64,000 nt of DNA from assembly GCA_965223485.1 (NCBI GenBank), contig OZ244993.1:177438-241437 (forward strand). Reading direction: 5' to 3'. The stretch is from Rhodothermales bacterium (GTDB lineage Bacteria > Bacteroidota > Rhodothermia > Rhodothermales > VXPQ01). The notes below the pieces were generated by a model. That model did no database searches. It was not told the DNA's origin and worked only from the letters and a program-made list of their open reading frames with translations. Position 1 is the first letter of the stretch, and each line of letters begins with the position of its first letter. Position numbers and translations under genes: made by a program. Below are positions 1 through 64,000 of the stretch, piece by piece.

Positions 1-3000
1 CGCCGTATCCGTCGTACTCCCCCGTCCCGTCCAGACGTATGTGTACTCGGAACCTGCCGGAGCACCGGACGCCGCGCAGTCCAGAGCGAAGTCCGCAGAT
101 CCCTCGTACACAGAACCGGGATCCGCGCACGTAACCGTGATAACCGGCCTGTTCAACACGGTTACGGTAATATCTTCGGTAACGTCAGCAACCCCGCTGG
201 CCGACAGCGTCACCGTGTAGTCGTAGTCCGTGTCCGCATCTACGTTGTCCGGGACATCGAACATCGGTGCAAGGATAGCCGTGCCGATCAGGTCGTTCGT
301 ATCCGATGTGCTGCCTCGGGGCGCCCACGAATACGCCGCGTCCGAAGGCGCGTTCGTCACCGAACAATCCAGCGTAATATCGGCCGCACCCTCGTATACC
401 GCGGTATCGTTACACGTAACAAAAGGACGCGGCGCATCCGTGTGCAGCACCGTCACTGTAACCTCGGCCCTGCCGTCTTCCGCATTCTCCGCACTCGCCG
501 TTACCGTGTACGTATACGTCGTGTCTTGCGGTACATCGTAAGGCACGTCGAATGTCGGCGTTGCCGTATCGTGATCCGTAAGACGATCGGTCGGAGACCA
601 TAACCACGTATACGAAGAGCCGCTCGGAGCGCCCGACGCCTCGCACTCCAGTTCAATGTCGGCCGAGCCCTCGTACACGGGATCGGGATCCGCGCACGTA
701 ACAGCGATTGCAGGCCTTGGCAGTACTCTTATCGTAATATCCTGGCTCGCGTACAAGTCTACCGTTAGCGGCGCACATCCCCCCGGACATCGGCCTCTCC
801 AAACCCCCAGAGTGTACTTGTAGGTCGTAGCGCTATTCACTGTTGCAGGCATGCGGAACGTCCCCGACCCGTATCCGGTAACGGTCAATCCCTGCGGCCT
901 CGGCCACCCCGTCGGCCATCCCCCGCTGCTGGAGATGGTATGGGGAAGGCCATCGGGGGTCCAGGCCGCCCACAACCACCGGAAGATGCCACCACCCGAC
1001 CTGCTCGAGAGTCTGCAACTCAATTCAATGTCGTCCGATCCGGCGTGCCTTTCAAAATAGGTTCCGTCACAAACCATCTCGCCGGGAAGACCCCTGTCGA
1101 GCACTGTCACCGTCACATCTTCCCTTGCCGATTTCGCGTTCTCCGCCGAGACGGTCAGCCTGTACTCGTACGTCACGTTTCTCGTAATAAAGGGCGGCGC
1201 TCTGAAGGTAGGCGAAGAAATGTCCGTCGCGCTAAGGCGCTGAATGTGCCAATTGTCCGGCGGACTCCCCCGGGCCGTCCAGACATAGTCGTAGGCGGAA
1301 CCCGAAGGCGCGCCCGACGCCGAGCAGTCCAGCGTGGTGTACCCCGAACCCTCGTACACCTCGTACGGATTGCCGGCGCAATCTACGTCGATCGCAGGCT
1401 TGTTCAGTACGGTTACCGTAACGTCTTCGCTGGCCTGCTCGACGCCGCCGACCGACAGCGTCACCGTGTATTCGTAGTCCGTGTTTGCACTTACACTAAC
1501 CGGCACGGCAAATGTGGGGGTAATGCCGTCCGTACCGCTCAACCGATCGGCGACGTCCGTGCCCGTCCAGCTGTACGCAGCATCCGACGGCGCGTTCGTC
1601 ACCGAACAGTCCAGCGTAATATCGTCCGCACCCTCGTACACCTCGCTATCTGCGCATGTGAGCGAAGGATCCCTATCCCGCACGATCACAGTAACGTCCG
1701 CCGAAGCAGACTCTGCATTCTCGGCGCTTACCGTCAGCGTGTAGTAGTACGTCTCTTCCTTTGCAACTTCATCCGGCACATAGAACGTCGGGGAAGCGAT
1801 GTCCGCAGCGCTCAAGTACGCCGGATCCGGCGTATCGCCACCCTCCGTCCAGACGTACGTATACTGTGGGCTGTCGCCCGGAGCCCCCGACGCCAGACAG
1901 CCCATCTCGAAATCCGGATCGCCCTCGTAGGTATACCACAAGTACTGGAGGAACGCAGCAAACCCATCGGTAGGCTTCGCACATGTGATCCTCAACGCTT
2001 CCTTGTTCAGCACCGTCACCATTACATCGGCGGTTACATCATCGATCCCGGCGGCCGACAGCGTCACCGTGTAATCATAGTCCGTGTCTGCGCTTGCACT
2101 ACCAGGCACGACAAACGTCGGAGTGAGACTACTCGTGTCCGTCAACCGATCGGCGACGTCCGTGCCCGTCCAACTGTACGCAGCATCCGACGGCGCGTTC
2201 GTCACCGTACAGTCCAGCGTAAAACCGGCCGCACCCTCGTAGACCTCGGAATCATTGCAGGTGATGGAGGGAGGAGGCGCCGTATCCGTGTCGAGCACCG
2301 TCACCGTAACGTTGGCGGTCTCATCGTCCGCATTCTCCGCCGTAGCCGTCACCGCGTACGTATACGTCGTGTCTTGCTCTACACTGCCAGGTACAGCGAA
2401 CGTGGGCGTACCCGTATCGTGATCCGTAAGACGGGTATTCGGAGACCATGACCACGTATATGAAGAGCCCCTCGGAGCCCCCGACGCCTCGCACTCCAGT
2501 TCAATGTCGGCCGATCCCTCGTACACCTCGTAGGAGCTTTCGCACATGACCGTTATATCTATGTCCCACACTATCAGATCAACCCACGCTACAGCGTCAT
2601 CCGCGTTCGCGGCGCTCACGGTCAGCGTATACGAGTACCTCTCGTCCTCGTCCACCGCATCCGGTACGTCAAACGTCGGAACTTCTATGTCCGCCGCGCT
2701 GAGCAGCGCCGTATCCGGCGTACCGTTCCGAGCCGTCCATGCGTACGTGTAACCGACAGGCCCTCCTTCCCATCCGCTTGCACAAGCGCGTAGTGGATAA
2801 TCCCGGCTGCCTTCAACAAGACCTAATGTTGTTAGAAAATGGCTTAACATTCCGGGTACTGACGGGCAATAGATATCCGGCTTCTCCAATACCGTTACGG
2901 TAACGTCTTCGCTGGCCTGCTCGACGCCGCCGACCGTCATCGTCACCGTGTAGTAATAGTCCTTATCCGCCTCGTCCGGCTCGTCGATATCGCCCGGCGC

Positions 3001-5477: not shown

Positions 5478-8400
5478 TCATTGCAATGCGCTCTTCGGGG
5501 TTGTTCTCCGTTCTTTTTCCCCGGCGGCCCCTATGTCTCTTCCCGGCGCATTCCACTCAACGGATGTGGGCTCGGGTACTCGACTCGATCCCCAGGGCGC
5601 AAATCGTAAAAACACCACCTCTTCCTCAGGCATACGAGCCAGCGGCACGCGCACGCGGCTGCGCGTGTACACCAGCGTCTCCCGGCGGCCCAGCTCGCGG
5701 CCATCCCCGTCGTACGCCACCACCTCGCCCGCAAAAGGACGATCCTCGGTCTCCAGCAAAAACGTCGCGGACATGGAAACCCCATACGACAACGACAACA
5801 GCGTGGCCCGTAGCTGAGACGCCCCTTCGCCGGGTACGTACACCCCCGGAACGCGCATCGTCACGCGAGCCGTCCTCTCTCCCGTAACCTCCTCCGGCAT
5901 ACGGTCCGAACGCACGTACTGACGAGGAGATGACACCACATCGAAAAACGCCGCGTAGCCCTGCTCCGCCATAGCCGCAAGCGCTCCCTCCTTCACCCCG
6001 TAACGCACCAGACCCTTCTCTCCAGGCTGCAATACCACAACCGCCGGATGTATGTCCACCACCTGGGACAAATCGCCCAGGCGTGAGTCCGAAGCATCCT
6101 CTACTACCACCTCCCGGCCGTCCCTTGTCGCCTCCGTATACCCGAATCGAGCAGACACCGACACCTCCAGCGGAATGAGCGACGGATTCGACAACTCGAA
6201 CACGCCGTGAGGCTTCCCTTCCGTCAAAAACGCAACATCGGGATAGATGCTCAGGTTCTGCTCCTCCGTCAAGCCCGCAGCAAGCTCACGTGATGTGCTG
6301 AAGCGAACCCCTCCGGGGCCTATCGTGATCACACGCTGCGAAGGTACGACCGTCACTTCCACCTCCACCGAGTGCGTCTCTTCGCTCTCGCCCGAACGAA
6401 GAACGATGTCCATACTCCCCGCATACCGCCCCGAAGGCGCGTCCGTAAGGTCCAGTTCGCCTCCGAAGCGAAGAAGGCGGCAGGCGCCCTCCGTAAGCGT
6501 CGCCTCCGTATACAGCCCGCCTATCGCCTGAGAAGAAAGCTGCTCGCACGACTCCGCAAAGGACCAGGAAGGAGAAAGAACGAGCGAAGACGGCTCGGCA
6601 GCGCCCTCACGCTTCAGAAGAACCGGAGAGACAACCTCTATGGACAGGTCCATCTCCCCGTTCTCGTCGAACGATGCGCCGCCGCCCGGCGAAAGCGTCA
6701 TACGGCCTGCATGGTACGGACCCGATACGCGCGTCGATATCTGATCCGTCATCGGATCGAGCGACGCCCGCGTCTGCGCCGACTGCACCCCGAAACGCAA
6801 GGACGATGCGCTTACCGTTACGCCAAGGGCCGTCGGATCCGAAGGCGCCCGTGAGGAAGACCCCGCTACGGGAGGCTCTTCTGCGGGAGGCGAAACAGGA
6901 TCCGGGGCAGGCGTCCGTATCCGGTCGAGCACCGTTACGGTCACCTCCGCCTTCGCATCTTCCGCATTCTCCGCACTGACCGTAAGCAGGTATTCGTACG
7001 TCTCGTCCTCGTCTACCTCATCCGGTACGTAAAACATCGGGGAGGAAACGTCCGCAGCGCTGAGCAGCGACGTATCCGGCGTATCGCCCCGAGCCGTCCA
7101 GGCGTACGTATACTGCGGGTCGTCGCCCGGAGCCCCGGACGCCGAGCAGTCGAACGTGGTATCTTCCGATCCCTCGTATACCGAACCGGGGTCCGCGCAC
7201 GCAATGCTAAGCGCCCCCTTGTTCAGCACCGTCACCGAAACCTCTGCCGCAGCGTCTTCCGCGTTGTCGGCGCTCGCCGTAAGCAGGTATTCGTAGGTCT
7301 CGTCCTCGTCCACTTCGTCCGGTACCGCGAACGTCGGGGACGCAATGTCCGCAGCGCTGAGCAGAGCCGTATCCGGCGTATCGCCCCGAGCCGTCCACGC
7401 GTACGTATACTGCGGATCATCGCCCGGAGCCCCGGACGCCGAGCAGTCGAACGCGATGTCTGCCGATCCCTCGTACACCGGAGAAGGCATCGCGCATACC
7501 ACGCGCAGCGCTCCCACATTCAACACCGTCACCGTCACATCCGCCGAGGCGTCTTCCGCATTCTCTGCCGAGACGGTCAGCGTGTATTCGTACGTCTCGT
7601 CCTCGTCTACCTCATCCGGTACGTAGAACATCGGGGAGGAAACGTCCACAGCGCTGAGCAGCGACGTATCCGGCGTATCGCCCTGCGCCTCCCATGTATA
7701 ATTGTAGGTGGAACCAGCCGGAGCCCCGGACGCCGAACAGTCGAATGCAACGTCCTCCGAGCCCTCGTACACCGAACCGGGATCCGCGCACACGAGCGCA
7801 AGCGTACCCTTGTTCAGCACCGTCACGGTAACGTCCTCTGTCACAGACTCCGCATTGTCGGCGCTTACCGTCAGCGTGTATTCGTACGTCTCGTCCTCGT
7901 CCACCTCCTCCGGCACGTCGAATGTCGGGGCGGGACCGTCCGCACCGGCAATAAGCAGGTTCGTGTTCGCCGTACCGTTCCTGGCCGTCCACTCATATTC
8001 GTAGGTGGAACCCCCGGGAGCGCCCGAAGCCGTGCAGTCGAATGCAATGTCCTCAGATCCCTCGTAGACCGAACCGGGGTCCGCGCACACGAGCGCAAGC
8101 GCACCCTTGTTCAGCACCGTTACGGTTACCGCCGCCGCAGCGTCTTCCGCGTTGTCCGCCGATACCGTCAGCGTGTATTCGTAGGTCTCGTCCTCGTCTA
8201 CCTCATCCGGTACGTAAAACATCGGGGAGGAAACGTCCGCAGCGCTGAGCAGGGCCGTATCCGGCGTATCGCCCCGAGCCGCCCAGGCGTACGTATACTG
8301 CGGGTCGTCGCCCGGAGCCCCGGACGCCGAGCAGTCGAACGCGAAGTCTTCCGAGCCTTCGTATACCGAACCGGGGTCCGCACACGCAAGCGCAAGAGCG

Positions 8401-11400
8401 CCCTTGTTCAGCACCTTCACCCTAACGAGCGCCACCGCAGACTCCGCATTCTCAGCGCTCACCCTCAACCTGTACTCGTAGGTTGTCGTTTGCGGCACGT
8501 CGTCCGGCACATGGAACGTCGGCGACGCTATGTCCGTCGCGCTCAAGAGACCCGTGTCCGGCTTGCCGCCCTGAGCTATCCACGAGTACACGTAGGCGGA
8601 ACCCCCGGGAGCGCCCGAAGCCTCGCAGTCGAACGCAACGTCCTCCGATCCCTCGTACACCGAACCGGGATCCGCGCACACGAGCGCAAGAGCGCCCTTG
8701 TTCAGCACCTTCACCCTAACGAGCGCCACCGCAGACTCCGCATTCTCAGCGCTCACCCTCAACCTGTACTCGTAGGTTGTCGTTTGCGGCACGTCGTCCG
8801 GCACATGGAACGTCGGCGACGCTATGTCCGTCGCGCTCAAGAGACCCGTGTCCGGCTTGCCGCCCTGAGCTATCCACGAGTACACGTAGGCGGAACCCCC
8901 GGGAGCGCCCGAAGCCGCGCAATCCAGAGCGAAGTCCTCCGAGCCCTCGTAGACCGAACCGGGGTCCGCACACGCAAGCGCAAGAGCGCCCTTGTTCAGC
9001 ACCTTCACGGTAACGTCGGCGCTGGCGGGATCCGCATTCTCCGCCGAGACGGTCAGCGTGTATTCGTACGTTGTCGTCGCATCTACCTCCTCCGGCACGT
9101 CGAATGTCGGGGCGGGACCGTCCGCACCGGCAATAAGCAGGTCCGTGTTCGCCGTACCGTTCCTGGCCGTCCACTCATATTCGTAGGCGGAACCTGCCGG
9201 AGCGCCCGAAACCGCGCAATCCAGAGCGAAATCCTCCGATCCCTCGTACACCGAACCCGGATCCGTGCATATAACGGCAAGCGCACCCCGGTTCAAAACC
9301 GTCACGGTCACCTCTGCCGTAGCGTCCTCCGCATTCTCCGCCGAGACGGTCAGCGTGTATTCGTACGTTGTCGTCGCATCTACCTCCTCCGGCACGGCAA
9401 ACACCGGGGAAGCAATGTCCGCCCTGCCAAGCATATCCGTATTTGTCGTAGAGCCTCTGGCCGTCCAGGCGTATCCGTAGGTAGAACCCCCAGGCGCGCC
9501 CGAAGCCGTGCAGTCCAACGCGAAGTCCTCCGAACCTTCGTACACCAAGGGGGGCGATGCGCAAACGAGCGCAATGGAGCCAAGGTTAAGCACCGTCACG
9601 GTCACCTCCGCCGAAGCGGACTCCGCATTCTCCGCGCTCGCCGTAAGCAGGTACTCGTACGTCGTCGTCTCGTCCAACGCATCCGGCACGTAGAACGTCG
9701 GAGAAGGTATGTCCGCGGTACTCAATCGGGACGTGTTCGGCGTCGCGCCTATGGCTGTCCACTCGTACGCATAATCGACGTTGTCTCCCGTATCCCCTGA
9801 GATCGAGCAGTCCAACGCGAAGTCCGCCGAACCTTCGTACACCAGGGGAGGCGATGCGCAAACGAGCGCAATGGATCCGAGGTTAAGCACCTTCACCGTC
9901 ACCTCCGCCCTTGCGGACTCCGCATTCTCCGCCGAAACCGTCAAAAGGTACTCGTACGTTTCGTCCTCGTCCACTTCCCCCGGCACGTCGAATGTCGGGG
10001 CGGGACCGTCCGCACCGGCAATAAGCAGGTCCGTGTTCGCCGTACCGTTCCTGGCCGTCCACTCATATTCGTAGGCGGAACCCCCGGGAGCGCCCGAAGC
10101 CGCGCAGTCGAATGCAATGTCCTCAGATCCCTCGTAGACCGAACCGGGGTCCGCACACGCAAGCGCAAGAGCGCCCTTGTTCAGCACCGTCACGGTAACG
10201 TCGGCGCTGGCGGGATCCGCATTCTCCGCCGAGACGGTCAGCGTGTATTCATACGTCTCGTCTTCGTCCACTTCTTCCGGTACGGCAAACGTCGGAGAAG
10301 GATCGTCCGTATTGCTTAAAAGCGACAGGTCAGGAGTCGCGCCCCGAGGCTCCCAAACGTATGTATAGATAGAACCCGCAGGAGCGCCCGACGCCGCGCC
10401 GCAATTCAACGGGAAATTCGCCGACCCCTCGTACACCGGAGCCGGGTCCATACATACCACCGAGAGAGATTCCTTGTTAAGTACTGTCACCGTAATCCCT
10501 GCCGTCTCAGAATCCGCATTGTCGGCGCTCACCGTCAGCGTGTAGTCGTATGTTTTGTCACTATCTATCTCTTCCGGTACATCGAACGTCGGCTTCGCAA
10601 TAGTCGTACTGCTCAGCCTGCCCGGGACCACGGTACTGCCGCGTCCCGTCCATACGTAGTTGTAGTTGTCAGTACCCGAAGGATCGCCCGACGCCGAACA
10701 GTCCAACGCAAAGTCCTCCGATCCCTCGTACACCAGAGGATAAAATTGGCAGGCTATGATCACATTCGGCTTCTCCAGCACGGTTACGGTAACGTCTTCG
10801 CTGGCCTGCTCGACGCCGCCGACCGTCATTGTAACCGTGTACTCGTAGTCCTTATTCGCTTCGCCCGGCTGATCGATATCGTACGGCGCCGCAAATGTGG
10901 GAGTAATGCCGTCCGTACCGCTCAACCGATTGCCAATATCCGTACCGGTCCACGCGTACGTAGCGCCCGGCGGCTCGTTCGCCACCGAACAGTCCAGCGT
11001 AATATCGGCCGTCCCCTCGTATACCTCCGAATCCGAACAAGTGACAACAGGTGCAGGCGTGTCCGTGTCAAGCACAAGTACCGCAACCGGCTCCGAAGCG
11101 TCATCCGCGTTCTCTGCGCTTACCGTCAGCGTATATTCGTATGTTTCGTCGCTGTCCACCTCCTCCGGTACCTCGAACGTCGGCTTCTCAACGGTCGTAC
11201 TACTCAACCTGCTCGTGTCGCCGCCGCCCCGCGCCGTCCATTCGTACGCGTAGTCGGAACCCGCAGGAGCACCCGACGCCGAACAGTCCAACGCGAAGTC
11301 CTCCGAGCCCTCGTACACCGGAGAAGGCGTCGCACACGCAAGCGCAAGAGCGCCCTTGTTCAGCACGGTTACGGTAACGTCATCGCGGGCCTGCTCGAAG

Positions 11401-14180: not shown

Positions 14181-14550
14181 GCAATCAGGCAGGGCGCCGC
14201 AGCGACCGACAAAACCCGGGCTCAAATCGCCCTTTATTATATATATATATATACAAATGAGGTTCTTGCAGCCTATACTCTCTCTCGCCGGTTCGATGAC
14301 CGGGGGCCCGGCTTAGGCCAAGGGTTGATGCCGGTAGCTACCCTTTGAGGTCTCCGGTGCATCTTCCATCCGTTCGGTTTTTCTTGCTTCGGGCGTGTCG
14401 GATATGCAGGCTGCACCCATCTTGTGAATTACGTCTTCATAACAAATTATCAACGTATCAATATATTTTCAAGGCACTTATGTGCCCTAATTGTGATATT
14501 ATAGGCTATATGCGTGATTCTATTGTGAACTTCCGGGCAGACCGCTCATT
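14181..14550 (-). promoter_or_regulatory. Upstream/leader region of paralog C, duplicated upstream of paralog A.
   Basis: 14181-14550 matches 40415-40787 except for a few substitutions, a 1-bp and a 6-bp indel, and the TA-tract length. It contains an AT-rich stretch (~14424-14530), short palindromes (GGTAGCTACC; GGCAC-N4-GTGCC) and the TA tract. The promoter position itself is not determined. Confidence 0.5.
14238..14253. repeat. (TA)8 dinucleotide microsatellite, 58-73 nt upstream of the paralog C start codon.
   Basis: Read directly: ...tttat TATATATATATATATA caaatga. The paralogous position upstream of A has (TA)6. Confidence 0.95.
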
Positions 14551-14654
14551 CGGTATCATTCGGGCCAAGTCGTTGCAGAATCGGGATTGCTTTATCCGAC
14601 GACGCACGGCGCGAACCCCGGGTGCTGCCTTCAAAACAAATCGAGGTGCGGAAA

Positions 14655-17148: not shown

Positions 17149-17672
17149 TTAAATTCCGCGAAAATCTGTCCAATCAAACCGAACCACCTCTACGGTCACA
17201 TCTTCGGTGACGTCATCAATGCCCGCAGCCGACAGCGTCAGCGTGTAGGCGTACGTCTGCTTGTAATCATCATTGTCCCCCCGTATATCGTCCGGCACGG
17301 CGAACGCTCGTTCGCACCGTTCAAAAGATGAAGCCCGTCGCCCAAGATCGCCTCCCAGGCGTAGCGAACGCCCTCCTCGGGCGCGCCTGTCGCAATACAC
17401 GAAAACAGAACAGATTCCCCTACCTGAACGGTAAGACGGGATGGACAAGACAAAGAAAACGACTCACCCGAAATGCCGTTGCCTTTTACAGGAAACCCGC
17501 CTTCCTCTATAACCTGACCCTGCGCCGTAGATACGCAGAGTAGCCCGGCGGCAAGTATGCAGATCATTCGGCCGACAAGCCCCGAATGCATTTTTATTGC
17601 CCCTCTCTGGAAATCGTTACAGAAAGACACAACGCTGCCAATGCAACATACACAGGTCTTGATACTACTCAT
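17149..17672 (-). pseudogene. Frameshifted remnant of the giant-protein family: signal peptide and first Ig-like domain joined out of frame to the tail of one repeat module.
   Basis: ORF 17238..17672 encodes ...MHSGLVGRMICILAAGLLCVSTAQG/QVIEEGGFPVKG...RYAWEAILGDGLHLL and then derails. ORF 17149..17448, in another frame, ends ...FAVPDDIRGDNDDYKQTYAYTLTLSAAGIDDVTEDVTVEVV, which is a module tail. There is no C-terminal module. Confidence 0.75.
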
Positions 17673-19217: not shown

Positions 19218-19229
19218 AACGAACCTGCC

Positions 19230-19604: not shown

Positions 19605-19611
19605 CTTTAAA

Positions 19612-20739: not shown

Positions 20740-20754
20740 GGAACAATGGGAAAA

Positions 20755-21138: not shown

Positions 21139-21149
21139 AGACAAAAATG

Positions 21150-25467: not shown

Positions 25468-25511
25468 CGAATCGGCCTCAAATGGCGATCGACTCTGAGA
25501 TATCCAATGGT

Positions 25512-43946: not shown

Positions 43947-44181
43947 GGAAAGCGAGTTGGATCGAAACGCGAAACACGCCGGGTGGCGGATTGCATCAGG
44001 CATCGGAGCAAACATGAAACCGGTGGACGTATCGTTGCAGGAAAAGTTTGAACGGAAGAATATGCTTCCGCCCCATAAAATACATGCGGGACAAACGGAT
44101 TTCGCCTTATCCCTCCTTTTTGGCTTCCGCAACACTCCGGCACACAAGGGGTTGCCTCGATTCAGGTCTATTGAGAACGGT

Positions 44182-54805: not shown

Positions 54806-55348
54806 CTATTCCTCTTCCTCCTGGTACTCCTCGAAGGTAAAATCCACGAACGCGTCGCTTCCGATGTAGGTCAGCACCTCCAGAAACTCCGGAGCCGTCA
54901 TAAAGCCGGGCAAACGGGTGATATATCTGCCTTCCTCATCCAGAAACACGGTGGTTGGAAATCCCGAAGCACCGAGGCCGGCCGCCATTTCCGAGGGGGT
55001 CAGCGTATAATCGCGGAAACTGAGACTGTCCGCCGTGTTCTCCGCATCGAGACGGGTCAGTACGAAATGGTCACGGACATACGCCTGCACCGATTCATCC
55101 GTGTAGACCTCGCGTTGCAATCGCCGGCACCAGGGACACCACGCCGCATAAACGTCTACGATCAATTTCTTGTCCTGCGTCTCTGCCTGCGTTACGGCCT
55201 CTTCGAATGCTTTCCAGTCAAGTCCTTCGGCAGGTACGCTGGCGTCTTGCGCGCGTACGTCTGCCGACGCAAGCATGCAGGCCGAAAACGCAAGCAGACT
55301 GGCAAGACCAAGCGAAATAAACGATCCGGGACGATTCATGACGCTCAT
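54806..55348 (-). CDS. Secreted thioredoxin-fold protein (WCPWC active site).
   Basis: Signal peptide ...ASADVRA/QDAS. The CxxC motif is in DVYAAWCPWCRRL. The C-terminus is acidic. The start overlaps the GT4 stop by 4 bp (ATGA). Confidence 0.75.
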   Translation of the reverse strand: MSVMNRPGSFISLGLASLLAFSACMLASADVRAQDASVPAEGLDWKAFEEAVTQAETQDKKLIVDVYAAWCPWCRRLQREVYTDESVQAYVRDHFVLTRLDAENTADSLSFRDYTLTPSEMAAGLGASGFPTTVFLDEEGRYITRLPGFMTAPEFLEVLTYIGSDAFVDFTFEEYQEEEE

Positions 55349-56568
55349 CGGAGCAATTCTCCGTAGATATGCATAAGTCGTTCTGATACCGAATCCGGGT
55401 TAAAAGTTTCGAACACGCGGGGAATGTTTTGACGCCACTGCTCCCGAAGCGGTTTCTGTGCGACGGCCCGGCGCAGGGCGGCTACAAGCGCGGTGCGATT
55501 GCCGGGTTCGACCAGGATACCTGTATCGTGCGGGGCAACCACCCGTCGGATTTCGGGCAGATCCGAGGCAACCACCGGAAGTCCGGCCATAAAGTACTGG
55601 AACAATTTGTTCGGCAGGGCGAAGCGATGGTTCAGGCAGGTATCCTGAAGCAGTGTTACGCCGAGATCGGCGGAAGCTGTGTACGCCGGCAGCCGGTCCG
55701 AAGGTACGGAATCGACGAAACGTATACGATCGGCGATCCCGGCGTCGGCCGTCTGCTTTTGCAGCGCAGGGCGAAGCGGTCCTCCACCAAGGAACACGAG
55801 CACGGCGCCTTCGATGTCCCGCATGGCGTCCACGAGTTGCTCGCAGCCGCGATCTTTCATCATGTGGCCCTGATGCAGCATCGTCACGGTGTCCGGATCG
55901 AGGTCCGGAACAAGCGGAGACGGCGACAGAGCAGGAGGTTTCCGGTCGGGAATGTTATGGAGCACTGCAGGACGAACCACCCCGTATGTTCCGGCGAGCC
56001 TGTCTGCAATGGCGTTCCCCACGGTCAGGACGGCATTGGCCCGGCGGATGTACCGGCGTTCGATCATGTACCAGAACGCACGCACCCAGGGTCTTCCAGC
56101 CGTAGCGGAAACGTGGGTGTACAATTCCCGGGCGTCGTACACGATGCGCCCTCCGTACCTGCGGGCAGCCGAACAGGCAGCCGGCAGCACGTACAGGCCC
56201 GATGCGTGATATACCCGCGCCGGGGTTTCAAGAAGCGCCTCCCGTACGCGGCGGTGCAATTCCAGAAAAAAAGAAGGACCGGAGCGCGAAGAGACAGATA
56301 TGCTGTGGAGATGTACGCCAGGTATTTCCGGAGCGCCGGATTCTCCCGATCCCGCGGCAACGATCCGGATGCGCAGGCCGGCATCGCCAAGGACCCTGAG
56401 TTGCCGGAGCGCCCTCGAATTATTGCGCAGGTCGCCGTACAGAGCAAATGCTACATCGAACCGGTCTTCGGCATGCACAGGGGTAACGGAAAAATCAGGT
56501 GAAAGGAAGAGAACCGGATCAGAAAAGCAGCACGCATGAAGTACGCCAGCCTCAAAACGCAACGACAT
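55345..56568 (-). CDS. GT-B fold glycosyltransferase (family 4-like).
   Basis: 407 aa. The C-terminal half has the GT4-type pattern ...LVFLGGGPLR...ASADLGVTLL...ALPNKLFQYFMAGLPVVASDLPEIRRVV...GILVEPGN. It starts 40 bp downstream of the giant E stop, on the same strand. Confidence 0.7.
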   Translation of the reverse strand: MSLRFEAGVLHACCFSDPVLFLSPDFSVTPVHAEDRFDVAFALYGDLRNNSRALRQLRVLGDAGLRIRIVAAGSGESGAPEIPGVHLHSISVSSRSGPSFFLELHRRVREALLETPARVYHASGLYVLPAACSAARRYGGRIVYDARELYTHVSATAGRPWVRAFWYMIERRYIRRANAVLTVGNAIADRLAGTYGVVRPAVLHNIPDRKPPALSPSPLVPDLDPDTVTMLHQGHMMKDRGCEQLVDAMRDIEGAVLVFLGGGPLRPALQKQTADAGIADRIRFVDSVPSDRLPAYTASADLGVTLLQDTCLNHRFALPNKLFQYFMAGLPVVASDLPEIRRVVAPHDTGILVEPGNRTALVAALRRAVAQKPLREQWRQNIPRVFETFNPDSVSERLMHIYGELLR

Positions 56569-56608: not shown

Positions 56609-59600
56609 TCAATGATCGTCAGCGACTACTACAGCCTTAACAGAATCCCTTGCCGGTGTTTTTTCCTTATAACCCACATCCCCTATATCCCTTCCCGGCG
56701 CATTCCACTCAACGGATGTGGGTTCGGGTACTCGACTCGATCCCCAGGGCGCAAATCGTAAAAACACCACCTCTTCCTCGGGCATACGAGCCAGCGGCAC
56801 GCGCACCCGGCTGCGCGTGTACACCAGCGTCTCCCGGCGGCCCAGCTCGCGGCCCTGCCCGTCGTACGCCACCACCTCGCCCGCAAAAGGACGATCCTGC
56901 GTCTCCAGCAAAAACGTCGCGGACATGGAAACCCCATACGACAACGACAACAGCGTGGCCCGTAGCTGAGACGCGCCTTCGCCGGGTACGTACACACCCG
57001 GAACGCGCATCGTCACGCGAGCCGTCCTCTCTCCCGTAACCTCCTCCGGCATACGGTCCGTTCGTACGTACTGACGAGGAGATGACGCCACATCGAAAAA
57101 CGCCGCGTAGCCCTGCTCCTCCATAGCCGCAAGCGCTCCCTCCTGCACCCCGTAACGGATAAGACCCTTCTCGCCGGGCTGCAATACCAACACGCCCGGA
57201 TGGATGTCCACCACCTTCGACAAATCGCCCAGACGAGAACCATCGGGCGACTCTATCACTACTTCCCGCCCATTCTCCGTCGCCTCCGTATACCCGAATC
57301 GAGCGGACACCGACACCTCCAGCGGAATGAGCGACGGATTCGACAGCTCGAACGCGCCGTTGGGCTTCCCTTCCGTCAAAAACGCAACGTCCGGGTAGAT
57401 GCTAAGACTCTGATCCTCCGTCAAGCCGGCGGGAACCTCCCGCGACGTGCTGAAGCGAACCCCTCCGGGGCCTATCGTGATCACGCGCTGCGAAGGTACG
57501 ACCGTCACTTCGACCTCCACCGAGTGCGTCTCTTCGCTCTCGCCCGAACGAAGAACCACGTCTATAGCGCCCGCATACCGCCCCGAAGGCGCGTCCGTAA
57601 GGTCCAGCTCGCCTCCGAAGCGAAGAAGGCGGCAGTCTGCTTCTGACAGCGTCGCCTCCGTATACAGCCCGCCTATCGCCTGAGAAGAAAGCTGCTCGCA
57701 CGACTCCGCAAAGGACCAGTTGGGCGCAAGAACGATCAAGGCAGCCTCGACGCCGCCCTCCTTACGCCTTAGCACGACCGGAGAAGCCAGTTCGATGGAC
57801 AACGACATCTCCCCGTTCTCGTCGAACGATGCGCCGCCGCCCGGCGAAAGCGTCATACGCCCCGCATGGTACGGACCCGATACGCGCGTCGATATCTGAT
57901 CCGTCATCGGATCGAGCGACGCCCGCGTCTGCGCCGACTGCACCCCGAAACGCAAGGACGATGCGCTTACCCTTACGCCAAGAGCCGTCGGATCCGAAGG
58001 CGCCCGCGAGGAAGACTCCGCTACGGCAGGCAAAGGATCGGCGGGGGGCTCTTCTGCGGGAGGCGAAACAGGATCCGGGGCAGGCGTCCGTATCCTGTCG
58101 AGCACCGTTACGGTAACGTCCGCCGCAGCGTCTTTCGCATTCGCCGCAGAGACGGTCAAAAGGTACTCGTAGGTCTCGTCTTCTTCCACCTCGTCCGGTA
58201 CATGGAACGTCGGCGACGCTATGTTCGTCGCGCTGAGCAGAGCCGTGTCCGGCGTATCGCCCCGAGCCGTCCACGCGTACGTATACTGCGGGTTGTCGCC
58301 CGGAGCCCCGGACGCCGAGCAGTCGAACGCGATGTCTGCCGATCCCTCGTAGACCGAACCGGGGTCCGCGCACGCGAGCGCAAGCGCACCCTTGTTCAGA
58401 ACCGTCACCGTTACCTCAGCCGTCGCGTCTTCTGCGTTCTCGGCGCTCGCCGTAAGCAGATATTCGTACATTGTCGTCGCATCTACCTCCTCCGGCACGG
58501 CAAACACCGGGGAAGCAATGTCCGCCCCACTGAGCAGATCCGTATTTGTCGTAGAGCCCCGGGCCGTCCAGGCGTATGTGTACTCGGAACCCCCGGGAGC
58601 GCCCGAAGCCGCGCAGTCGAATGCAATGTCCTCAGATCCCTCGTAGACCGAACCGGGGTCCGCACACGCAAGCGCAAGAGCGCCCCGGTTAAGCACCGTA
58701 ACGGTCACCTCCGCCGAACCGGACTTCGCATTCTCCGCACTGGCCGTAAGCAGGTACTCGTACGTCGTCGTCTCCTCCAACGCATCCGGCACGTGGAACG
58801 TTGGAGAAGATATGTCCGCAGCGCTCAATCGGGACGTGTTCGGCGTCGCGCCTATGGCCGTCCAGGCGTATCCGTAGGTAGAACCCCCAGGCGCGCCCGA
58901 AGCCGCGCAGTCCAAAGCAAAGTCCGCAGATCCCTCGTAGACCGAACCGGGGTCCGCACACGCAAGCGCAAGAGCGCCCTTGTTCAGCACCGTCACGGTA
59001 ACGTCGGCGCTGGCGGGATCCGCATTCTCCGCCGAGACGGTCAGCGTGTATTCGTACGTTGTCGTCGCATCTACCTCCTCCGGCACGGCAAACACCGGGG
59101 AAGCAATGTCCGCCCCACTGAGCAGATCCGTATTTGTCGTAGAGCCTCTGGCCGTCCACTCATATTCGTAGGCGGAACCCCCGGGAGCGCCCGAAGCCGC
59201 GCAGTCGAATGCAATGTCCTCCGAGCCCTCGTAGACCGAACCGGGGTCCGCACACGCAAGCGCAAGAGCGCCCTTGTTCAGCACCTTCACCCTAACGAGC
59301 GCCACCGCAGACTCCGCATTCTCAGCGCTCACCCTCAACCTGTACTCGTAGGTTGTCGTTTGCGGCACGTCGTCCGGCACACGGAACGTCGGCGACGCTA
59401 TGTCCGTCGCGCTCAAGAGACCCGTGTCCGGCTTGCCGCCCTGAGCTATCCACGAGTACACGTAGGCGGAACCCCCGGGAGCGCCCGAAGCCGCGCAGTC
59501 GAATGCAATGTCCTCCGAGCCCTCGTAGACCGAACCGGGGTCCGCACACGCAAGCGCAAGAGCGCCCTTGTTCAGCACCTTCACGGTAACGTCGGCGCTG

Positions 59601-62600
59601 GCGGGATCCGCATTCTCCGCCGAGACGGTCAGCGTGTATTCGTACGTTGTCGTCGCATCTACCTCCTCCGGCACGGCAAACACCGGGGAAGCAATATCCG
59701 CCCCACTGAGCAGATCCGTATTTGTCGTAGAGCCTCTGGCCGTCCACTCATATTCGTAGGCGGAACCCCCGGGAGCGCCCGAAGCCGCGCAGTCGAATGC
59801 AATGTCCTCAGATCCCTCGTAGACCGAACCGGGGTCCGCGCACACGAGCGCAAGCGCACCCTTGTTCAGCACCGTCACCCTAACGAGCGCCACCGCAGAC
59901 TCCGCATTCTCAGCGCTCACCCTCAACCCGTACTCGTAGGTTGTCGTTTGCGGCACGTCGTCCGGCACATGGAACGTCGGCGACGCTATGTCCGTCGCGC
60001 TCAAGAGACCCGTGTCCGGCTTGCCGCCCTGAGCTATCCACGAGTACACGTAGGCGGAACCCCCGGGAGCGCCCGAAGCCGCGCAGTCGAACGCGAAGTC
60101 TTCCGAGCCTTCGTATACCGAACCGGGGTCCGCACACGCAAGCGCAAGAGCGCCCTTGTTCAGCACCTTCACCCTAACGAGCGCCACCGCAGACTCCGCA
60201 TTCTCAGCGCTCACCCTCAACCTGTACTCGTAGGTTGTCGTTTGCGGCACGTCGTCCGGCACATGGAACGTCGGCGACGCTATGTCCGTCGCGCTCAAGA
60301 GACCCGTGTCCGGCTTGCCGCCCTGAGCTATCCACGAGTACACGTAGGCGGAACCCCCGGGAGCGCCCGAAGCCGCGCAATCCAGAGCGAAGTCCTCCGA
60401 GCCCTCGTAGACCGAACCGGGGTCCGCACACGCAAGCGCAAGAGCACCCTTGTTCAGCACCGTCACGGTAACGTCGGCGCTGGCGGGATCCGCATTCTCC
60501 GCCGAGACGGTCAGCGTGTATTCGTACGTTGTCGTCGCATCTACCTCCTCCGGCACGTCGAATGTCGGGGCGGGACCGTCCGCACCGGCAATAAGCAGGT
60601 CCGTGTTCGCCGTACCGTTCCTGGCCGTCCACTCATATTCGTAGGCGGAACCCCCGGGAGCGCCCGACGCCGCGCAGTCGAATGCAATGTCCTCCGAGCC
60701 TTCGTACACCGAAGGCGGATCCGCGCATACCACGCGCAGCGCTCCCACATTCAACACCGTCACCGTCACCGCTGCCGAACCGGACTCCGCATTCTCCGCA
60801 CTGGCCGTAAGCAGGTACTCGTAGGTTGTCGTAGCATCCAGCGCATCCGGCACGTAGAACGTCGGGGCGGGACCGTCCGTGCCACTGATGAGCCGATCCG
60901 TGTTTGCCGTACTTCCCCGGGCCGTCCACTCGTACGCGTAGTCGGAACCCGAAGGGGCGCCCGAAGCCGAGCAGTCAAACGCGAAGTCTTCCGAGCCTTC
61001 GTACACCGAACCCGGATCCGCGCACACAACCGCAAGAGCGCCCCGGTTAAGCACCGTAACGGTCACCTCCGCCGAACCGGACTCCGCATTCTCCGCACTG
61101 GCCGTAAGCAGGTACTCGTAGGTTGTCGTAGCATCCAGCGCATCCGGCACGTAGAACGTCGGGGCGGGACCGTCCGTGCCACTGATGAGCCGATCCGTGT
61201 TTGCCGTACTTCCCCGGGCCGTCCACTCGTACGCGTAGTCGGAACCCGAAGGGGCGCCCGAAGCCGAGCAGTCGAACGCGAAGTCTTCCGAGCCTTCGTA
61301 CACCGAACCCGGATCCGCGCACACAACCGCAAGAGCGCCCCGGTTAAGCACCGTAACGGTCACCTCCGCCGAACCGGACTCCGCATTCTCCGCACTGGCC
61401 GTAAGCAGGTACTCGTACGTCGTCGTCGCGTCCACCTCCTCCGGCACGTAGAACACGGGCGAGGCAATGTCCGCAGCGCTGAGCAGCGCCGTATTTGTCG
61501 TAGAGCCTATGGCCGTCCAGGCGTATTCGTAGGCAGAGCCCGCAGGAGCCCCCGACACCGAACAGTCGAACGCGATGTCTGCCGATCCCTCGTACACCGA
61601 ACCCGGATCCGCGCACGCGAGCGCAAGCGCGCCCCGGTTCAGCACCGTAACGGTCACCTCCGCCGAACCGGACTCCGCATTCTCCGCACTGGCCGTAAGC
61701 AGGTACTCGTACGTCGTCGTCGCGTCCACTTCCTCCGGCACGTAGAACACGGGCGAGGCAATGTCCGCAGCGCTGAGCAGCGCCGTATTTGTCGTAGAGC
61801 CTATGGCCGTCCAGGCGTATTCGTAGGCAGAGCCCGCAGGAGCCCCCGACGCCGAACAGTCGAACGCGATGTCTGCCGATCCCTCGTACACCGAACCCGG
61901 ATCCGCGCACGCGAGCGCAAGAGCGCCCTTGTTCAACACCGTTACCGTAACGTCCGCCGAAGCAGGAATAGTATTTCCCCCGCTAACCGTCAGCCTGTAC
62001 GAGTAGGTCCTGGTCTCGTTTATAGCACGAGGCACCGCGAACGTAGGGGTGGGACCGTCCGCGCCTGCAATTAACCGCGCCAGGTCTAACCTACTGCCCT
62101 GCCATTTATATGAATATGCGACGCCTGCAGGAGCGCCCGAAGCCGAGCAGTCCAGGTCGAAATCCTCCGAACCCTCATAGACCGAAGGCGGATCCGCGCA
62201 TACAAGAGCAAGTGTCGCATCGAACGCATCACGGTCAAGCACTGTCACTGAAATGAGGTAGGAACCACTGCCTCTGCCCCATGTGACTTTCAAGGTGTAT
62301 TCATAGATTTCATGGTTATCAATACTATCGGGGACATCGAAAGAGGGATTTGGTATGTCCGTAGCGCCCAATCTATCCGTATCTGACGTAGTTCCCCGTG
62401 TCATCCATTCCCATGTAAAATGGGAATCGGGTAATATATCGCCATTAGCTGTTACAGCACTACAATTGGCTATAGTTTTGTCCGAATCTCCCTCAAAAAA
62501 AGATGCTTCCGTTGAACAACTCATCGTCCATCCACCCGCAGTCTTTACTCTAACAACAATATTTGTTTCGTTACTCTGAATACCTGCACTGACAGAAACG

Positions 62601-64000
62601 GTGTAATAGAAAAGCAAGTCTTCCGTGTATGTATCTATCTCATCCCATCGGGGGACGTCAAAAATGGGGTTAGGTATATTTGTAGCGCTTAATCTATCCG
62701 TATCTGACGTGGTTTCGCGAGGGATCCACTCCCAAATGGCGCCTTCCGGCGCACCCGGGGCGGAGCACTCCAGTTCAATATCCTCCCAACCTGCATAAAC
62801 ACCATAGTACACCTCAGAACACGCAAGATTAAATCTATCGAAATCCAGATCTCTGATCACCACCGTATATCTGGACCTGAATTCATCGGCATTATCAGCT
62901 GATATGATACGGGAATATTCATAAACCATGTCTTCCGGAACATCGTCAGGGACCTGAAAAACGGGAGTACTAACCTCTGTGCTGCTCAAGAGCGAAAGAG
63001 CGCTGGTCGGCGTAACGCCCAGGTTTGTCCATGTGTATCTGTAAATGGGATCGTCTCCCGGAGCCCCTTGCAGGGGATCGAGACAGCCAACGAGACTGAA
63101 ATCCGGCGCCCCTTCATTTTTCTCGTATGCCCGACGGCCTATACAACTTTGGATATCCGGCTTCTCCAATACCCTGACCGTAATGTCGGTGCTGGCCGTG
63201 TCGATGCCTGCAACCGACAGCGTTACCGTATAGTCGTAGTCCTTGTCCCACCCGCCTACTTCGCCCGGCACGGAAAATGTGGGGGTTGCTCTGTCCGTGC
63301 CCGTCAACCGATTGGCGACATCCGCGCCCGTCCAACTGTACGCAGCATCCGAAGGCTCGTTCTCTACCGAACAGTCCAGCGTAATATCGGCCGCACCCTC
63401 GTAGACCTCGCTATCTGCGCATGTGAGCGAAGGAGCCGCCGCATCCGTGTCTTTCACCGTCACCGTAACCTCGGCGGTCCCAGCATCCGCTCTATTCACC
63501 GTAGCCCTTACCGTGTAGGTATATGTCGTGTCTTGCTCTACACTGCCGGGTACAGCGAACGTGGGCGTACCCGTATCGTGATCCGTAAGACGAGTAGTCG
63601 GTGACCAGGACCACGTATATGAAGAGCCGCTCGGAGCGCCCGACGCCTCGCACTCCAGTTCAATGTCGGCCGAACCCTCGTACACGGAATCGGGATCCTC
63701 ACAAGTAACAACAATGGGTGGTTTGTTCTTGACATTCACCGCATAGGACATTAAAAAAGGATCCGCATTGTCCGCCGATACGGTCATCGTATACTCGTAC
63801 CTCTTGTCCTCGGAAACTGCATCGGGAACCCGGAAGAAAGGCTCCTCGACGTCCGTGGCGCTCAAAAGAGAGATAGCGGTACTCGAAGTGCTTCCCCTGG
63901 TCGTCCAGTTGTACCTGTAGACGGGACTGAGGCCCGGAGCGCCTGTATAATTATACTCTGGACAGTACGTCAACTGAAAATCCGCTTCTCCTTCATAGCT
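56609..64000 (-). CDS. Giant secreted Ig/PKD-like repeat protein, paralog E. Partial: the 5' end lies beyond the right edge, with >2,460 codons in the window.
   Basis: Track ORF 56609..63973 begins at an internal TTG. The frame stays open to 64000 (SYEGEADFQ LTYCPEYNY...). The C-terminal module is 56609-58099, about 14 aa longer than in the other paralogs and with a different last ~25 aa. There are 14 regular modules, then irregular modules homologous to those of A. Confidence 0.9.
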   Translation of the reverse strand, partial: SYEGEADFQLTYCPEYNYTGAPGLSPVYRYNWTTRGSTSSTAISLLSATDVEEPFFRVPDAVSEDKRYEYTMTVSADNADPFLMSYAVNVKNKPPIVVTCEDPDSVYEGSADIELECEASGAPSGSSYTWSWSPTTRLTDHDTGTPTFAVPGSVEQDTTYTYTVRATVNRADAGTAEVTVTVKDTDAAAPSLTCADSEVYEGAADITLDCSVENEPSDAAYSWTGADVANRLTGTDRATPTFSVPGEVGGWDKDYDYTVTLSVAGIDTASTDITVRVLEKPDIQSCIGRRAYEKNEGAPDFSLVGCLDPLQGAPGDDPIYRYTWTNLGVTPTSALSLLSSTEVSTPVFQVPDDVPEDMVYEYSRIISADNADEFRSRYTVVIRDLDFDRFNLACSEVYYGVYAGWEDIELECSAPGAPEGAIWEWIPRETTSDTDRLSATNIPNPIFDVPRWDEIDTYTEDLLFYYTVSVSAGIQSNETNIVVRVKTAGGWTMSCSTEASFFEGDSDKTIANCSAVTANGDILPDSHFTWEWMTRGTTSDTDRLGATDIPNPSFDVPDSIDNHEIYEYTLKVTWGRGSGSYLISVTVLDRDAFDATLALVCADPPSVYEGSEDFDLDCSASGAPAGVAYSYKWQGSRLDLARLIAGADGPTPTFAVPRAINETRTYSYRLTVSGGNTIPASADVTVTVLNKGALALACADPGSVYEGSADIAFDCSASGAPAGSAYEYAWTAIGSTTNTALLSAADIASPVFYVPEEVDATTTYEYLLTASAENAESGSAEVTVTVLNRGALALACADPGSVYEGSADIAFDCSVSGAPAGSAYEYAWTAIGSTTNTALLSAADIASPVFYVPEEVDATTTYEYLLTASAENAESGSAEVTVTVLNRGALAVVCADPGSVYEGSEDFAFDCSASGAPSGSDYAYEWTARGSTANTDRLISGTDGPAPTFYVPDALDATTTYEYLLTASAENAESGSAEVTVTVLNRGALAVVCADPGSVYEGSEDFAFDCSASGAPSGSDYAYEWTARGSTANTDRLISGTDGPAPTFYVPDALDATTTYEYLLTASAENAESGSAAVTVTVLNVGALRVVCADPPSVYEGSEDIAFDCAASGAPGGSAYEYEWTARNGTANTDLLIAGADGPAPTFDVPEEVDATTTYEYTLTVSAENADPASADVTVTVLNKGALALACADPGSVYEGSEDFALDCAASGAPGGSAYVYSWIAQGGKPDTGLLSATDIASPTFHVPDDVPQTTTYEYRLRVSAENAESAVALVRVKVLNKGALALACADPGSVYEGSEDFAFDCAASGAPGGSAYVYSWIAQGGKPDTGLLSATDIASPTFHVPDDVPQTTTYEYGLRVSAENAESAVALVRVTVLNKGALALVCADPGSVYEGSEDIAFDCAASGAPGGSAYEYEWTARGSTTNTDLLSGADIASPVFAVPEEVDATTTYEYTLTVSAENADPASADVTVKVLNKGALALACADPGSVYEGSEDIAFDCAASGAPGGSAYVYSWIAQGGKPDTGLLSATDIASPTFRVPDDVPQTTTYEYRLRVSAENAESAVALVRVKVLNKGALALACADPGSVYEGSEDIAFDCAASGAPGGSAYEYEWTARGSTTNTDLLSGADIASPVFAVPEEVDATTTYEYTLTVSAENADPASADVTVTVLNKGALALACADPGSVYEGSADFALDCAASGAPGGSTYGYAWTAIGATPNTSRLSAADISSPTFHVPDALEETTTYEYLLTASAENAKSGSAEVTVTVLNRGALALACADPGSVYEGSEDIAFDCAASGAPGGSEYTYAWTARGSTTNTDLLSGADIASPVFAVPEEVDATTMYEYLLTASAENAEDATAEVTVTVLNKGALALACADPGSVYEGSADIAFDCSASGAPGDNPQYTYAWTARGDTPDTALLSATNIASPTFHVPDEVEEDETYEYLLTVSAANAKDAAADVTVTVLDRIRTPAPDPVSPPAEEPPADPLPAVAESSSRAPSDPTALGVRVSASSLRFGVQSAQTRASLDPMTDQISTRVSGPYHAGRMTLSPGGGASFDENGEMSLSIELASPVVLRRKEGGVEAALIVLAPNWSFAESCEQLSSQAIGGLYTEATLSEADCRLLRFGGELDLTDAPSGRYAGAIDVVLRSGESEETHSVEVEVTVVPSQRVITIGPGGVRFSTSREVPAGLTEDQSLSIYPDVAFLTEGKPNGAFELSNPSLIPLEVSVSARFGYTEATENGREVVIESPDGSRLGDLSKVVDIHPGVLVLQPGEKGLIRYGVQEGALAAMEEQGYAAFFDVASSPRQYVRTDRMPEEVTGERTARVTMRVPGVYVPGEGASQLRATLLSLSYGVSMSATFLLETQDRPFAGEVVAYDGQGRELGRRETLVYTRSRVRVPLARMPEEEVVFLRFAPWGSSRVPEPTSVEWNAPGRDIGDVGYKEKTPARDSVKAVVVADDH
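58100..62215 (-). repeat. In-frame tandem array of ~14 units of 294-297 bp inside paralog E, including near-identical adjacent doublets.
   Basis: Identical shadow-ORF translations start at 59910 and 60204 (294 bp apart), with near-identical copies at 59322. Doublets lie at ~60740-61335 and ~61335-61925. Confidence 0.9.

Follow-up and report, generated by a model that had tools for sequence, protein, structure and literature searches.

Giant K319L-type PKD-repeat proteins, putatively secreted and adhesin-like, in an uncultured Rhodothermales bacterium

Giant genes and adhesins built of immunoglobulin (Ig)-like repeats are already well known (10.1101/2023.11.21.568195, PMC8877628), and bacterial fibrillar adhesins such as Bap, SiiE, LapA/MpIBP and the 7,651-aa adhesin of Mobiluncus carry near-identical Ig-like repeats in their stalks, with intradomain cross-links that lend mechanical stability (isopeptide, ester or disulfide bonds) and with repeat numbers that vary between strains (PMC8877628, PMC10619420, PMC3492233). 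In the Bacteroidota, the SprB/RemA-type adhesins that depend on the type IX secretion system (T9SS) likewise come as multiple giant repetitive paralogues that start with a Sec signal and have their C-terminal region conserved. The locus described here, a window of 64,000 nucleotides from an uncultured marine Rhodothermales bacterium (assembly GCA_965223485.1, contig OZ244993.1, positions 177,438 to 241,437; all positions given below without a contig name are those of the window), contains five giant repeat genes, which we designate A to E. We read their products, with a probability of roughly 0.6, as secreted, disulfide-stapled, fibrillar adhesin-like surface proteins that have undergone a lineage-specific expansion in probably sponge-associated Rhodothermales. 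What distinguishes them from the systems already described is a C-terminal module of four beta-sandwiches and an unusually high copy number in a small genome.

Architecture of the giant proteins

Six-frame analysis finds five giant reading frames, all on the minus strand, which together take up 36,475 nt, or 57.0% of the window (Table 1), bearing out the original prediction, made by eye from the sequence, that one such family fills more than half of it. The sizes proposed at the same time, from more than 1,800 to about 3,100 codons, hold for the three complete genes B, C and D (~1,850 to 3,120 codons); A and E are truncated by the window ends, and for E a further ~588 codons are seen in the same-species contig L037, giving a full length of ~3,050 aa. 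Two decayed copies had also been claimed, and both of them, a collapsed copy of 295 codons and an N-terminal remnant, are located by a tblastn search of the window with three queries from B (the N-terminus, a pair of modules and the last 520 aa). The collapsed copy retains the signal peptide, the first Ig domain and 1.6 modules, with an in-frame fusion at ...LIAGTDG/RELGRR... to the final 75 aa of the C-terminal module, and it is also found in two further strain contigs. The product of the remnant is 59% identical to residues 16-111 of the B/D-type N-terminus. The open reading frame (ORF) at 48371-51043 was considered as a collapsed copy and rejected, as it encodes valyl-tRNA synthetase (ValS).

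The greater part of each protein consists of modules of 98-99 aa that match the Pfam family PF22352 (K319L-like PKD), whose gathering score is 27 bits; the scores are 360.7 bits for B (E = 3e-110, in 16 stretches), 116.9 bits for C and 39.2 bits for the collapsed copy. In a comparison of the module profile with PDB sequences, KIAA0319L (6nz0_Z, E = 0.0011) gives a match that is weak but top-ranked. Judged by these matches the module is a known domain, the K319L-type PKD, and the guess by eye of a PKD/KIAA0319-like fold was right, KIAA0319L being the best relative of solved structure. Partial, sub-threshold matches in NCBIfam are to the repeat parts of sortase-dependent M36 peptidases (NF038112, 636 bits against a cut-off of 1,500; NF038111, 58 against 1,700) and cover model positions ~1,190-1,570, which lie in the repeat part. 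Matches to the module alone are common in many unrelated proteins of 3,000-7,000 aa (HMMER, 1.84 billion cluster representatives).

In the DNA the arrays have a period of 294-300 bp (Tandem Repeats Finder). The numbers of Ig-like units listed in Table 1 come from a module hidden Markov model (HMM) built on an alignment of 18 units of B and anchored on the Cys pairs. The aligned units show C-x16-C, YxYxW, PTFxVP and TYEYxLTVSAxNA...VTVTVLN, so that all three of the motifs picked out earlier (YxYxW, PTFxVP and YxYxLTVS...VTVTVL) are recovered. The accompanying claim that every module contains exactly two cysteines 16 residues apart applies to 87 of the 96 delimited modules, in which they stand at HMM columns 13 and 30, and not to the other nine.

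There are two types of N-terminus. An additional first Ig domain distinguishes B, D, the collapsed copy and the remnant from A, C and E (the last as read from L037), which begin with a Cys/Pro-rich segment; this corrects the earlier description of a single N-terminal architecture for all copies. The B and D N-termini are 96% identical over 421 aa, and those of A and C are 74% identical. With the N-terminal 370-460 aa as query, Pfam, NCBIfam and PDB give either no match or matches to Ig/PKD domains alone, and PDB yields nothing informative.

All of the giant proteins start with a hydrophobic segment that ends AYG↓Q or AQG↓Q, and which we judge by inspection to be a Sec signal from its positively charged n-region, its hydrophobic core and this putative cleavage site. 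The [AG]↓Q end is kept in homologues with only 34-43% identity. Signal peptidase I substrates of Bacteroidetes follow a 'Q-rule', with Gln after the cleavage site, and the signal ends fit this rule, which supports export. The signal peptidase I signal originally proposed is thus recognizable throughout, with the qualification that B and D additionally show an LLAC motif; this could be a lipobox, and it is not conserved in distant homologues.

The C-terminal module, export and the linked gene cluster

In B, C, D and E the last PKD module is followed by a Pro-rich linker and then by a module that is 84-93% identical among the four, confirming at 484 aa the conserved C-terminal region previously estimated at ~480 aa. 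A search with 476 aa of it assigned it to no family of Pfam or NCBIfam, and PDB sequences gave no useful match; two cysteines are invariant across 28 homologues. A first AlphaFold2 model, computed from 64 close homologues, had a mean predicted local distance difference test score (pLDDT) of 58 and weak Foldseek matches, and was superseded by a model from an alignment that includes distant homologues, which is all-beta with about four sandwiches (pLDDT 82.9, predicted template modelling score 0.63). Foldseek aligns this model with the chaperones FimC, PapD and CsuC at template modelling (TM) scores of ~0.5 over ~245 columns, other matches being CFA/I pilins, hydin-type ciliary proteins, the SPD-2 domain of CEP192 and Porphyromonas gingivalis 2qsv, all of them at 7-15% sequence identity. 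As modelled, the module is a tandem of PapD-like/ASH-type sandwiches, and is neither a membrane barrel nor an enzyme. To judge from the database searches it is new, being described by no Pfam, NCBIfam or PDB entry.

While the PKD modules belong to a named domain family, no known secretion route or anchor was found to go with them, and the possibility raised beforehand that they might prove to be a known family with a known route is realized in its first half only. GGxGxD motifs number zero in all copies, which, unlike RTX (repeats-in-toxin) adhesins of the type I secretion system (T1SS) such as LapA, SiiE and MpIBP, have an N-terminal Sec signal. The T9SS occurs in the Fibrobacteres-Chlorobi-Bacteroidetes (FCB) group, to which the Rhodothermales host belongs, and the giant proteins can be pictured as SprB-like T9SS cargo in which the last beta-sandwich is a cryptic, divergent C-terminal sorting domain (CTD). 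Such an arrangement would refine rather than replace the adhesin-like reading, and it agrees with the Sec signal with Gln at +1, with a final sandwich of ~105 aa that in distant homologues ends exactly at the C-terminus, with a pattern (...ET...PF.G.V.V.D..G.ELGR...LVYTRSRV...L.F) that by eye resembles CTD strands, and with the retention of the final 75 aa in the collapsed copy. However, the CTD models of type A (PF18962 and TIGR04183) and type B (TIGR04131) remain without a match at E <= 1 in the window proteins and at E <= 10 in 19 diverse last domains, no T9SS CTD emerges from the comparison of the last-domain profile with PDB or from the top 50 Foldseek matches of the C-terminal module, and the window proteins bear an extra charged tail of ~25 aa beyond the last domain. 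The sequence covered for T9SS genes was the 64-kb window and 20-kb loci, which contain none; gliding motility is not known in this Rhodothermales lineage. We entertain T9SS export as a tentative possibility, and a somewhat doubtful one.

A second route is suggested by the five-gene ExbD-type cluster (Table 1) that the collapsed copy and the remnant flank, and whose 375-aa membrane protein (unk375) has a TonB/TolA-like layout. In relatives the order is unk246, ExbD, unk375, ExbD, the tetratricopeptide repeat (TPR) lipoprotein, zero to four giants, unk834 and an ExbB/MotA-like gene; the cluster adjoins or interleaves with giant genes in four related genomes (L004 429-14747, L005 6772-14511, L026 12157-16533 and L025 11870-15222), three of which show the whole or most of this order. 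An intact giant gene stands in relatives at the position of the remnant, downstream of the TPR lipoprotein gene, and from the shared order it follows that the two decayed copies of the window occupy sites that are held by intact giants elsewhere. The 834-aa unk834 protein has a Sec signal, is beta-rich and ends in a CarboxypepD_reg-like sandwich; it has no PDB sequence relative and falls in no recognised family.

One could propose from this that the ExbB/ExbD motor, the TonB/TolA-like protein, the TPR lipoprotein and possibly an usher-like unk834 form a dedicated and hitherto undescribed apparatus for export or anchoring, to which the C-terminal module docks. The linkage in four genomes, the position of the two decayed copies on either side of the window's cluster, the Sec signal and C-terminal sandwich of unk834 and the finding that the closest folds to the C-terminal module are chaperone-usher chaperones and pilins are all in keeping with this proposal, as is, by way of a lead, a faint match of unk834 to Pfam Usher (E = 0.28 in one of four orthologues, far from significance). 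The PapD-like matches, though, amount to generic Ig-fold similarity at 8-13% identity, operons of the form ExbB-ExbD-ExbD-TonB-TPR are ordinary TonB systems in these bacteria, and there is one linked locus per genome, with D-C, E and most copies elsewhere lying far from the cluster. In addition, unk834 and ExbB are outside the window, within which there is no usher (PF00577) or chaperone gene. We consider a dedicated apparatus to be very unlikely.

Two neighbours of the giant genes may have to do with disulfide formation. A DCC1-like thiol-disulfide oxidoreductase gene lies directly downstream of C, and a thioredoxin/DsbH-like gene (54806-55348, minus strand) is the second gene after E, behind that of a GT4 glycosyltransferase, in an order that is the same in L037. 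Both the DCC1-like and the thioredoxin/DsbH-like gene hold their positions in other strain contigs, and by this placement alone it is suggested that they may help to oxidise the ~40-57 cysteines of each giant protein.

Duplication, module turnover and distribution

The genes D-C and B-A form tandem pairs, each joined by an ATGA in which the stop codon of the first gene overlaps the ATG of the second (31052-31055 and 5478-5481, respectively), an arrangement that suggests translational coupling of the two giants of each pair. The 1.6-kb block 12919-14550, which extends into the region upstream of B, is 96% identical to 39153-40787, which lies upstream of and inside D, indicating that the gene pair was duplicated along with ~330 bp of upstream or promoter region. 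The B copy of this region contains a (TA)8 tract and the D copy a paralogous (TA)6 tract, in each case ~60 nt before the start codon. In the strain contigs L038 and L039, which over 13-15 kb match the window at 99.7% and 98.8% identity, the tract before B is (TA)6 (14965-14976 and 14966-14977, respectively), so that its length is unstable at one and the same site. The tract may be an expression switch, or the difference may be a consensus error in a dinucleotide repeat; a promoter and terminator scan showed no difference from shuffled sequence. Between the remnant and the B promoter, and divergent to B, is a gene for a GAF-PAS hybrid histidine kinase with a receiver and an OmpR-type DNA-binding domain (14622-17045, plus strand), which could be a regulator of B. 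Look-ups for exact matches to B and to this kinase gave none.

Near-identical modules occur at non-equivalent positions in different proteins. B17, D18, E13, E14 and E16 share 97-99% identity, B18 and D19 are identical, and identity is 98-99% within the neighbouring pairs E08/E09 and E10/E11; divergence is greatest among the N-proximal modules, and the C-proximal ones are homogenised. On the strength of these identities the modules are mosaic between paralogues. Turnover is also apparent between strains: E and its counterpart in L037, a contig in which housekeeping proteins are 98-100% identical, are 100% identical at both ends and differ by an exact one-module indel of 294 bp and by two recombined patches at 65-80% identity, and the B orthologue in L038 has 3,168 aa, compared with 2,900 aa in the window.

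Point substitutions give a different picture. Values of dN/dS (Nei-Gojobori) are 0.25-0.33 among the paralogous C-terminal modules and 0.17-0.65 in 22 module pairs, and therefore indicate purifying selection on constrained, working genes, and dS among the C-terminal modules is only 0.09-0.35, which implies that the giant genes are young or have been homogenised by conversion. The description of the system as rapidly evolving is thus apt for the module architecture, with its indel, patches and changing module number, but not for point substitutions.

These patterns also bear on the idea that the giant proteins are not ligand-specific adhesins and serve for protection, as a coat or spacer in the form of an S-layer-like canopy, a decoy for phages or predators, or a shield against host phagocytosis. 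Archaeal S-layer proteins include some with PKD domains (cited in PMC6697440), and many length-variable paralogues that have no recognisable ligand-binding domain, with a module number that varies between strains as expected of a target of phage or host recognition, could be accommodated by such a role. Against this, S-layers usually consist of one abundant lattice-forming species and not of 5-10 different 300-kDa rods, the substitutions give no signal of diversifying selection, and nothing ties the giant genes to defence loci in the window. A coat is in our opinion an unlikely function for them.

Gene D contains a 1.1-kb in-frame cassette, modules D07-D10, in which GC content at third codon positions (GC3) is 18-38%, as compared to 70-80% in the rest of D, the C-terminal modules and ValS. 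On the upstream side it is sharply delimited, at the border between modules D06 and D07. A homologous block of intermediate GC in E, modules E04-E06, has 57-64% aa identity to it. In P0088, a fragment of a D orthologue in another entry, the cassette is present at 99% identity within D-type flanks, and it is consequently not a chimera peculiar to one assembly. Searches for a donor found none in the JGI metagenomes, in IMG/VR or in a database of 5.8e9 proteins, the last of which gave one weak match only. The simplest reading of the composition is that the cassette is a recent import from a low-GC organism carrying the same family. A broader scenario would combine C-terminal docking to the linked apparatus in sponge-associated Rhodothermales with horizontal exchange of cassettes between high- and low-GC members of the community, the D cassette being one such import; we assign little likelihood to this combination.

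As to the distribution of the family, the C-terminal module matches only 70 of 5.8 billion proteins, all from metagenome assemblies. A scan of one genome per species, covering 185,579 species, found it at 36 loci, all of them in uncultured Rhodothermales or Rhodothermaceae metagenome-assembled genomes (MAGs), and among these species-representative genomes we thus see a lineage-specific expansion confined to Rhodothermales. Closed chromosomes contain ten copies (OZ246975.1, 3.16 Mb), six, of which four are in tandem (OZ220686.1), two (OZ252093.1) and one (OX638293.1), and three draft MAGs hold several copies each; in the closed MAG chromosomes most of the module-bearing frames are 1,400-3,300 aa long. 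An exhaustive HMMER search of the 1.84 billion cluster representatives finds more distant members of 930-1,300 aa that have the same layout with only 4-8 modules, from which we conclude that the architecture is old in the lineage and that the long arrays and the high copy number are a recent expansion.

The metagenomic source, repeats of 294 bp whose translations reach 98-100% identity and the breaking of some orthologues in other contigs into several ORFs raise the question as to whether the copies are an assembly artefact of a single gene, or chimeric joins within the repeats. This we regard as extremely improbable. The copies differ in N-terminal type, in module number and in their unique flanks, and their C-terminal modules differ from one another (84-93% identity and the dS values given above); independent contigs show these loci again, the collapsed copy, the remnant and the low-GC cassette among them; and four closed, long-read MAG chromosomes have 1-10 copies each. 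The paralogues are real, as was originally maintained. Orthologues of E and C in other contigs of ERZ25067264 (L037 3613-12472, L038 1-4149 and L039 1-3706) are called as three to four ORFs, with frame changes that fall within the divergent patches or the C-terminal module. Because gene calls are split in this way in many assemblies, copy number and length are underestimated, and database entries are mostly fragments.

The window contains ordinary genes elsewhere, encoding the hybrid histidine kinase/response regulator, an enolase-superfamily enzyme, tRNA-Ala, the DCC1-like thiol-disulfide oxidoreductase, a fumarylacetoacetate (FAA) hydrolase, a short-chain dehydrogenase/reductase (SDR), a sulfatase, a TonB-dependent receptor with a CarboxypepD_reg domain, ValS, AroC, an HtrA-type protease, an acyltransferase, the thioredoxin-like protein and the GT4 glycosyltransferase. 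An Rfam search of the window has a single tRNA as its only match.

Table 1. Positions of the giant genes, their parts and associated features in the 64,000-nt window
Feature	Position	Strand	Remarks
Giant gene A	1-5481	-	C-terminus lost at window edge; A/C/E-type N-terminus; at least 17 Ig/PKD units
Giant gene B	5478-14180	-	2,900 aa from ATG; signal peptide, 3 divergent N-terminal Ig units + 20 PKD modules (23 units)
Giant gene B, distal parts	within 5478-14180	-	Pro-rich linker, then C-terminal module
C-terminal module of B	5478-6932	-	484 aa, modelled as four beta-sandwiches
Upstream region of B	14181-14550	-	part of 1.6-kb block 12919-14550
(TA)8 tract	14238-14253		upstream of B start codon
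Remnant	ORF 17238-17672; homology 17289-17576	-	short ORF
Five-gene cluster	17679-22100	-	unknown secreted protein, ExbD-like, 375-aa membrane protein, second ExbD-like, TPR lipoprotein
Collapsed copy	22111-22998	-	295 aa; 2 units
DCC1-like thiol-disulfide oxidoreductase gene	25012-25590	-	directly downstream of C
Giant gene C	25512-31055	-	~1,850 aa; A/C/E-type N-terminus; ~12 Ig/PKD units; C-terminal module
C-terminal module of C	25512-26966	-	homologous to B module
Giant gene D	31052-40414	-	3,120 aa from ATG; 3 + 22 Ig/PKD units (25 units); C-terminal module
C-terminal module of D	31052-32506	-	homologous to B module
Low-GC in-frame cassette	37037-38176	-	1.1 kb; modules D07-D10, D aa 771-1150
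(TA)6 tract	40472-40483		upstream of D; paralogous to B tract
GT4 glycosyltransferase and thioredoxin-like (DsbH-like) genes	54806-56568	-	directly downstream of E; same order in L037
Giant gene E	56609-64000	-	at least 20 modules + C-terminal module; N-terminus outside window
C-terminal module of E	56609-58105	-	homologous to B module
Intermediate-GC block in E	62234-63076	-	modules E04-E06, GC3 30-52%; homologous to D cassette

Proposed function and comparison with known systems

From these features we can outline how the giant proteins might work. The signal peptide would be cleaved before Gln and the fibre-like protein exported by Sec, with an N-terminal Ig-like 'head' of one of the two types, a stalk of 10-22 K319L-type PKD modules, a Pro-rich hinge and a conserved base of four PapD/ASH-like beta-sandwiches. 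One disulfide per module, between strands A and B, would form in the periplasm, where the thiol-disulfide oxidoreductases encoded nearby could assist. The exported rod would be ~100 nm long, with the C-terminal base cell-proximal and engaging the envelope or the export machinery, and with the variable N-terminal end and the N-proximal modules distal and facing the ligand. Diversity would be generated when the 294-bp repeats undergo unequal recombination and gene conversion and when whole cassettes are exchanged, and the upstream (TA)n tract would possibly add on/off or expression-level variation. The role would be attachment to host matrix, to particles or to other cells.

The host in question is probably a sponge. 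A homologue of unk834, 75% identical, is present in 'Bacteroidetes bacterium SB0662_bin_6', and SB06xx-series bins appear in a list of sponge-associated Poribacteria genomes (PMC7883664); a part for PKD-containing proteins in the interaction of sponge symbionts with their hosts has been discussed (PMC6697440). The window also has genes for a sulfatase (42549-44207, minus strand) and a SusC-like TonB-dependent receptor (45202-47862, plus strand), consistent with the use of sulfated polysaccharides. Such use is often reported for sponge and algal associates.

Several points weigh against this interpretation. The giant proteins have no T9SS CTD of type A or B, PEP-CTERM, LPXTG, terminal transmembrane helix, RTX repeats or autotransporter barrel, and in view of this lack of any known anchor or sorting signal they may not cross the outer membrane and could remain in the periplasm. 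The only pointers to a cell-surface location are the Sec signal and the Cys pairs, and we infer the disulfide staple from the conservation of the cysteines alone. Neither end of the proteins has a recognisable adhesive or ligand-binding domain in Pfam, NCBIfam or PDB. The split orthologues reflect either decay in those strains or consensus errors in the repeats, and the sponge link comes from a single named homologue of a neighbouring gene.

Wherever giant repeat proteins are present they dominate the cell surface, and to maintain 5-10 of them under selection in an uncultured genome of ~3 Mb is a large investment, one that points to the interface with the surroundings, probably the sponge host, as the main selective arena. 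How rods of 300 kDa are exported and held is most naturally sought in the C-terminal module, which has no known sorting signal. The near-identical strains, which differ by modules, patches, (TA)n tracts and decayed copies, constitute a natural experiment in the evolution of repeat proteins.

Comparison with described systems shows partial likeness to each of them. The K319L-like PKD domains, for which the type structures are PKD domains of human KIAA0319L/AAVR, are tandem Ig-like beta-sandwiches of ~90-100 aa like the modules described here; each giant protein, however, is a secreted protein of bacteria in which 10-22 copies, with a strictly conserved C-x16-C pair apiece, are combined with an unrelated C-terminal module, and the match is one of domain only and not of whole-protein function. 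A PKD repeat of like kind is found in the C-terminal halves of the myxosortase- and rhombosortase-dependent M36 metallopeptidases (NF038112 and NF038111), from which the giant proteins differ in having neither an M36 peptidase domain nor a sortase-type C-terminal signal, and in scoring far under the cut-offs. For the four C-terminal sandwiches the PapD-like/ASH (MSP-type) Ig domains are the closest solved folds, two-domain chaperones among them, but here the sandwiches are covalently joined to the fibre and are not a separate chaperone, and there is no sign of donor-strand exchange. With the SprB/RemA-type adhesins the giant proteins have in common an FCB host as well as the features named at the outset, whereas no type A or B CTD is detectable in them and their repeats are of a different kind. 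The nearest parallel in overall form is with the fibrillar adhesins, which are alike in their giant size, in the near-identity of their Ig-like stalk repeats and in a repeat number that varies between strains, and whose known cross-links would be matched here by the putative disulfides. The giant proteins depart from them in lacking an adhesive tip, an RTX/T1SS signal, LPXTG and an autotransporter anchor, in possessing an N-terminal Sec signal, and in being encoded by 5-10 paralogues per genome and not by one or two.

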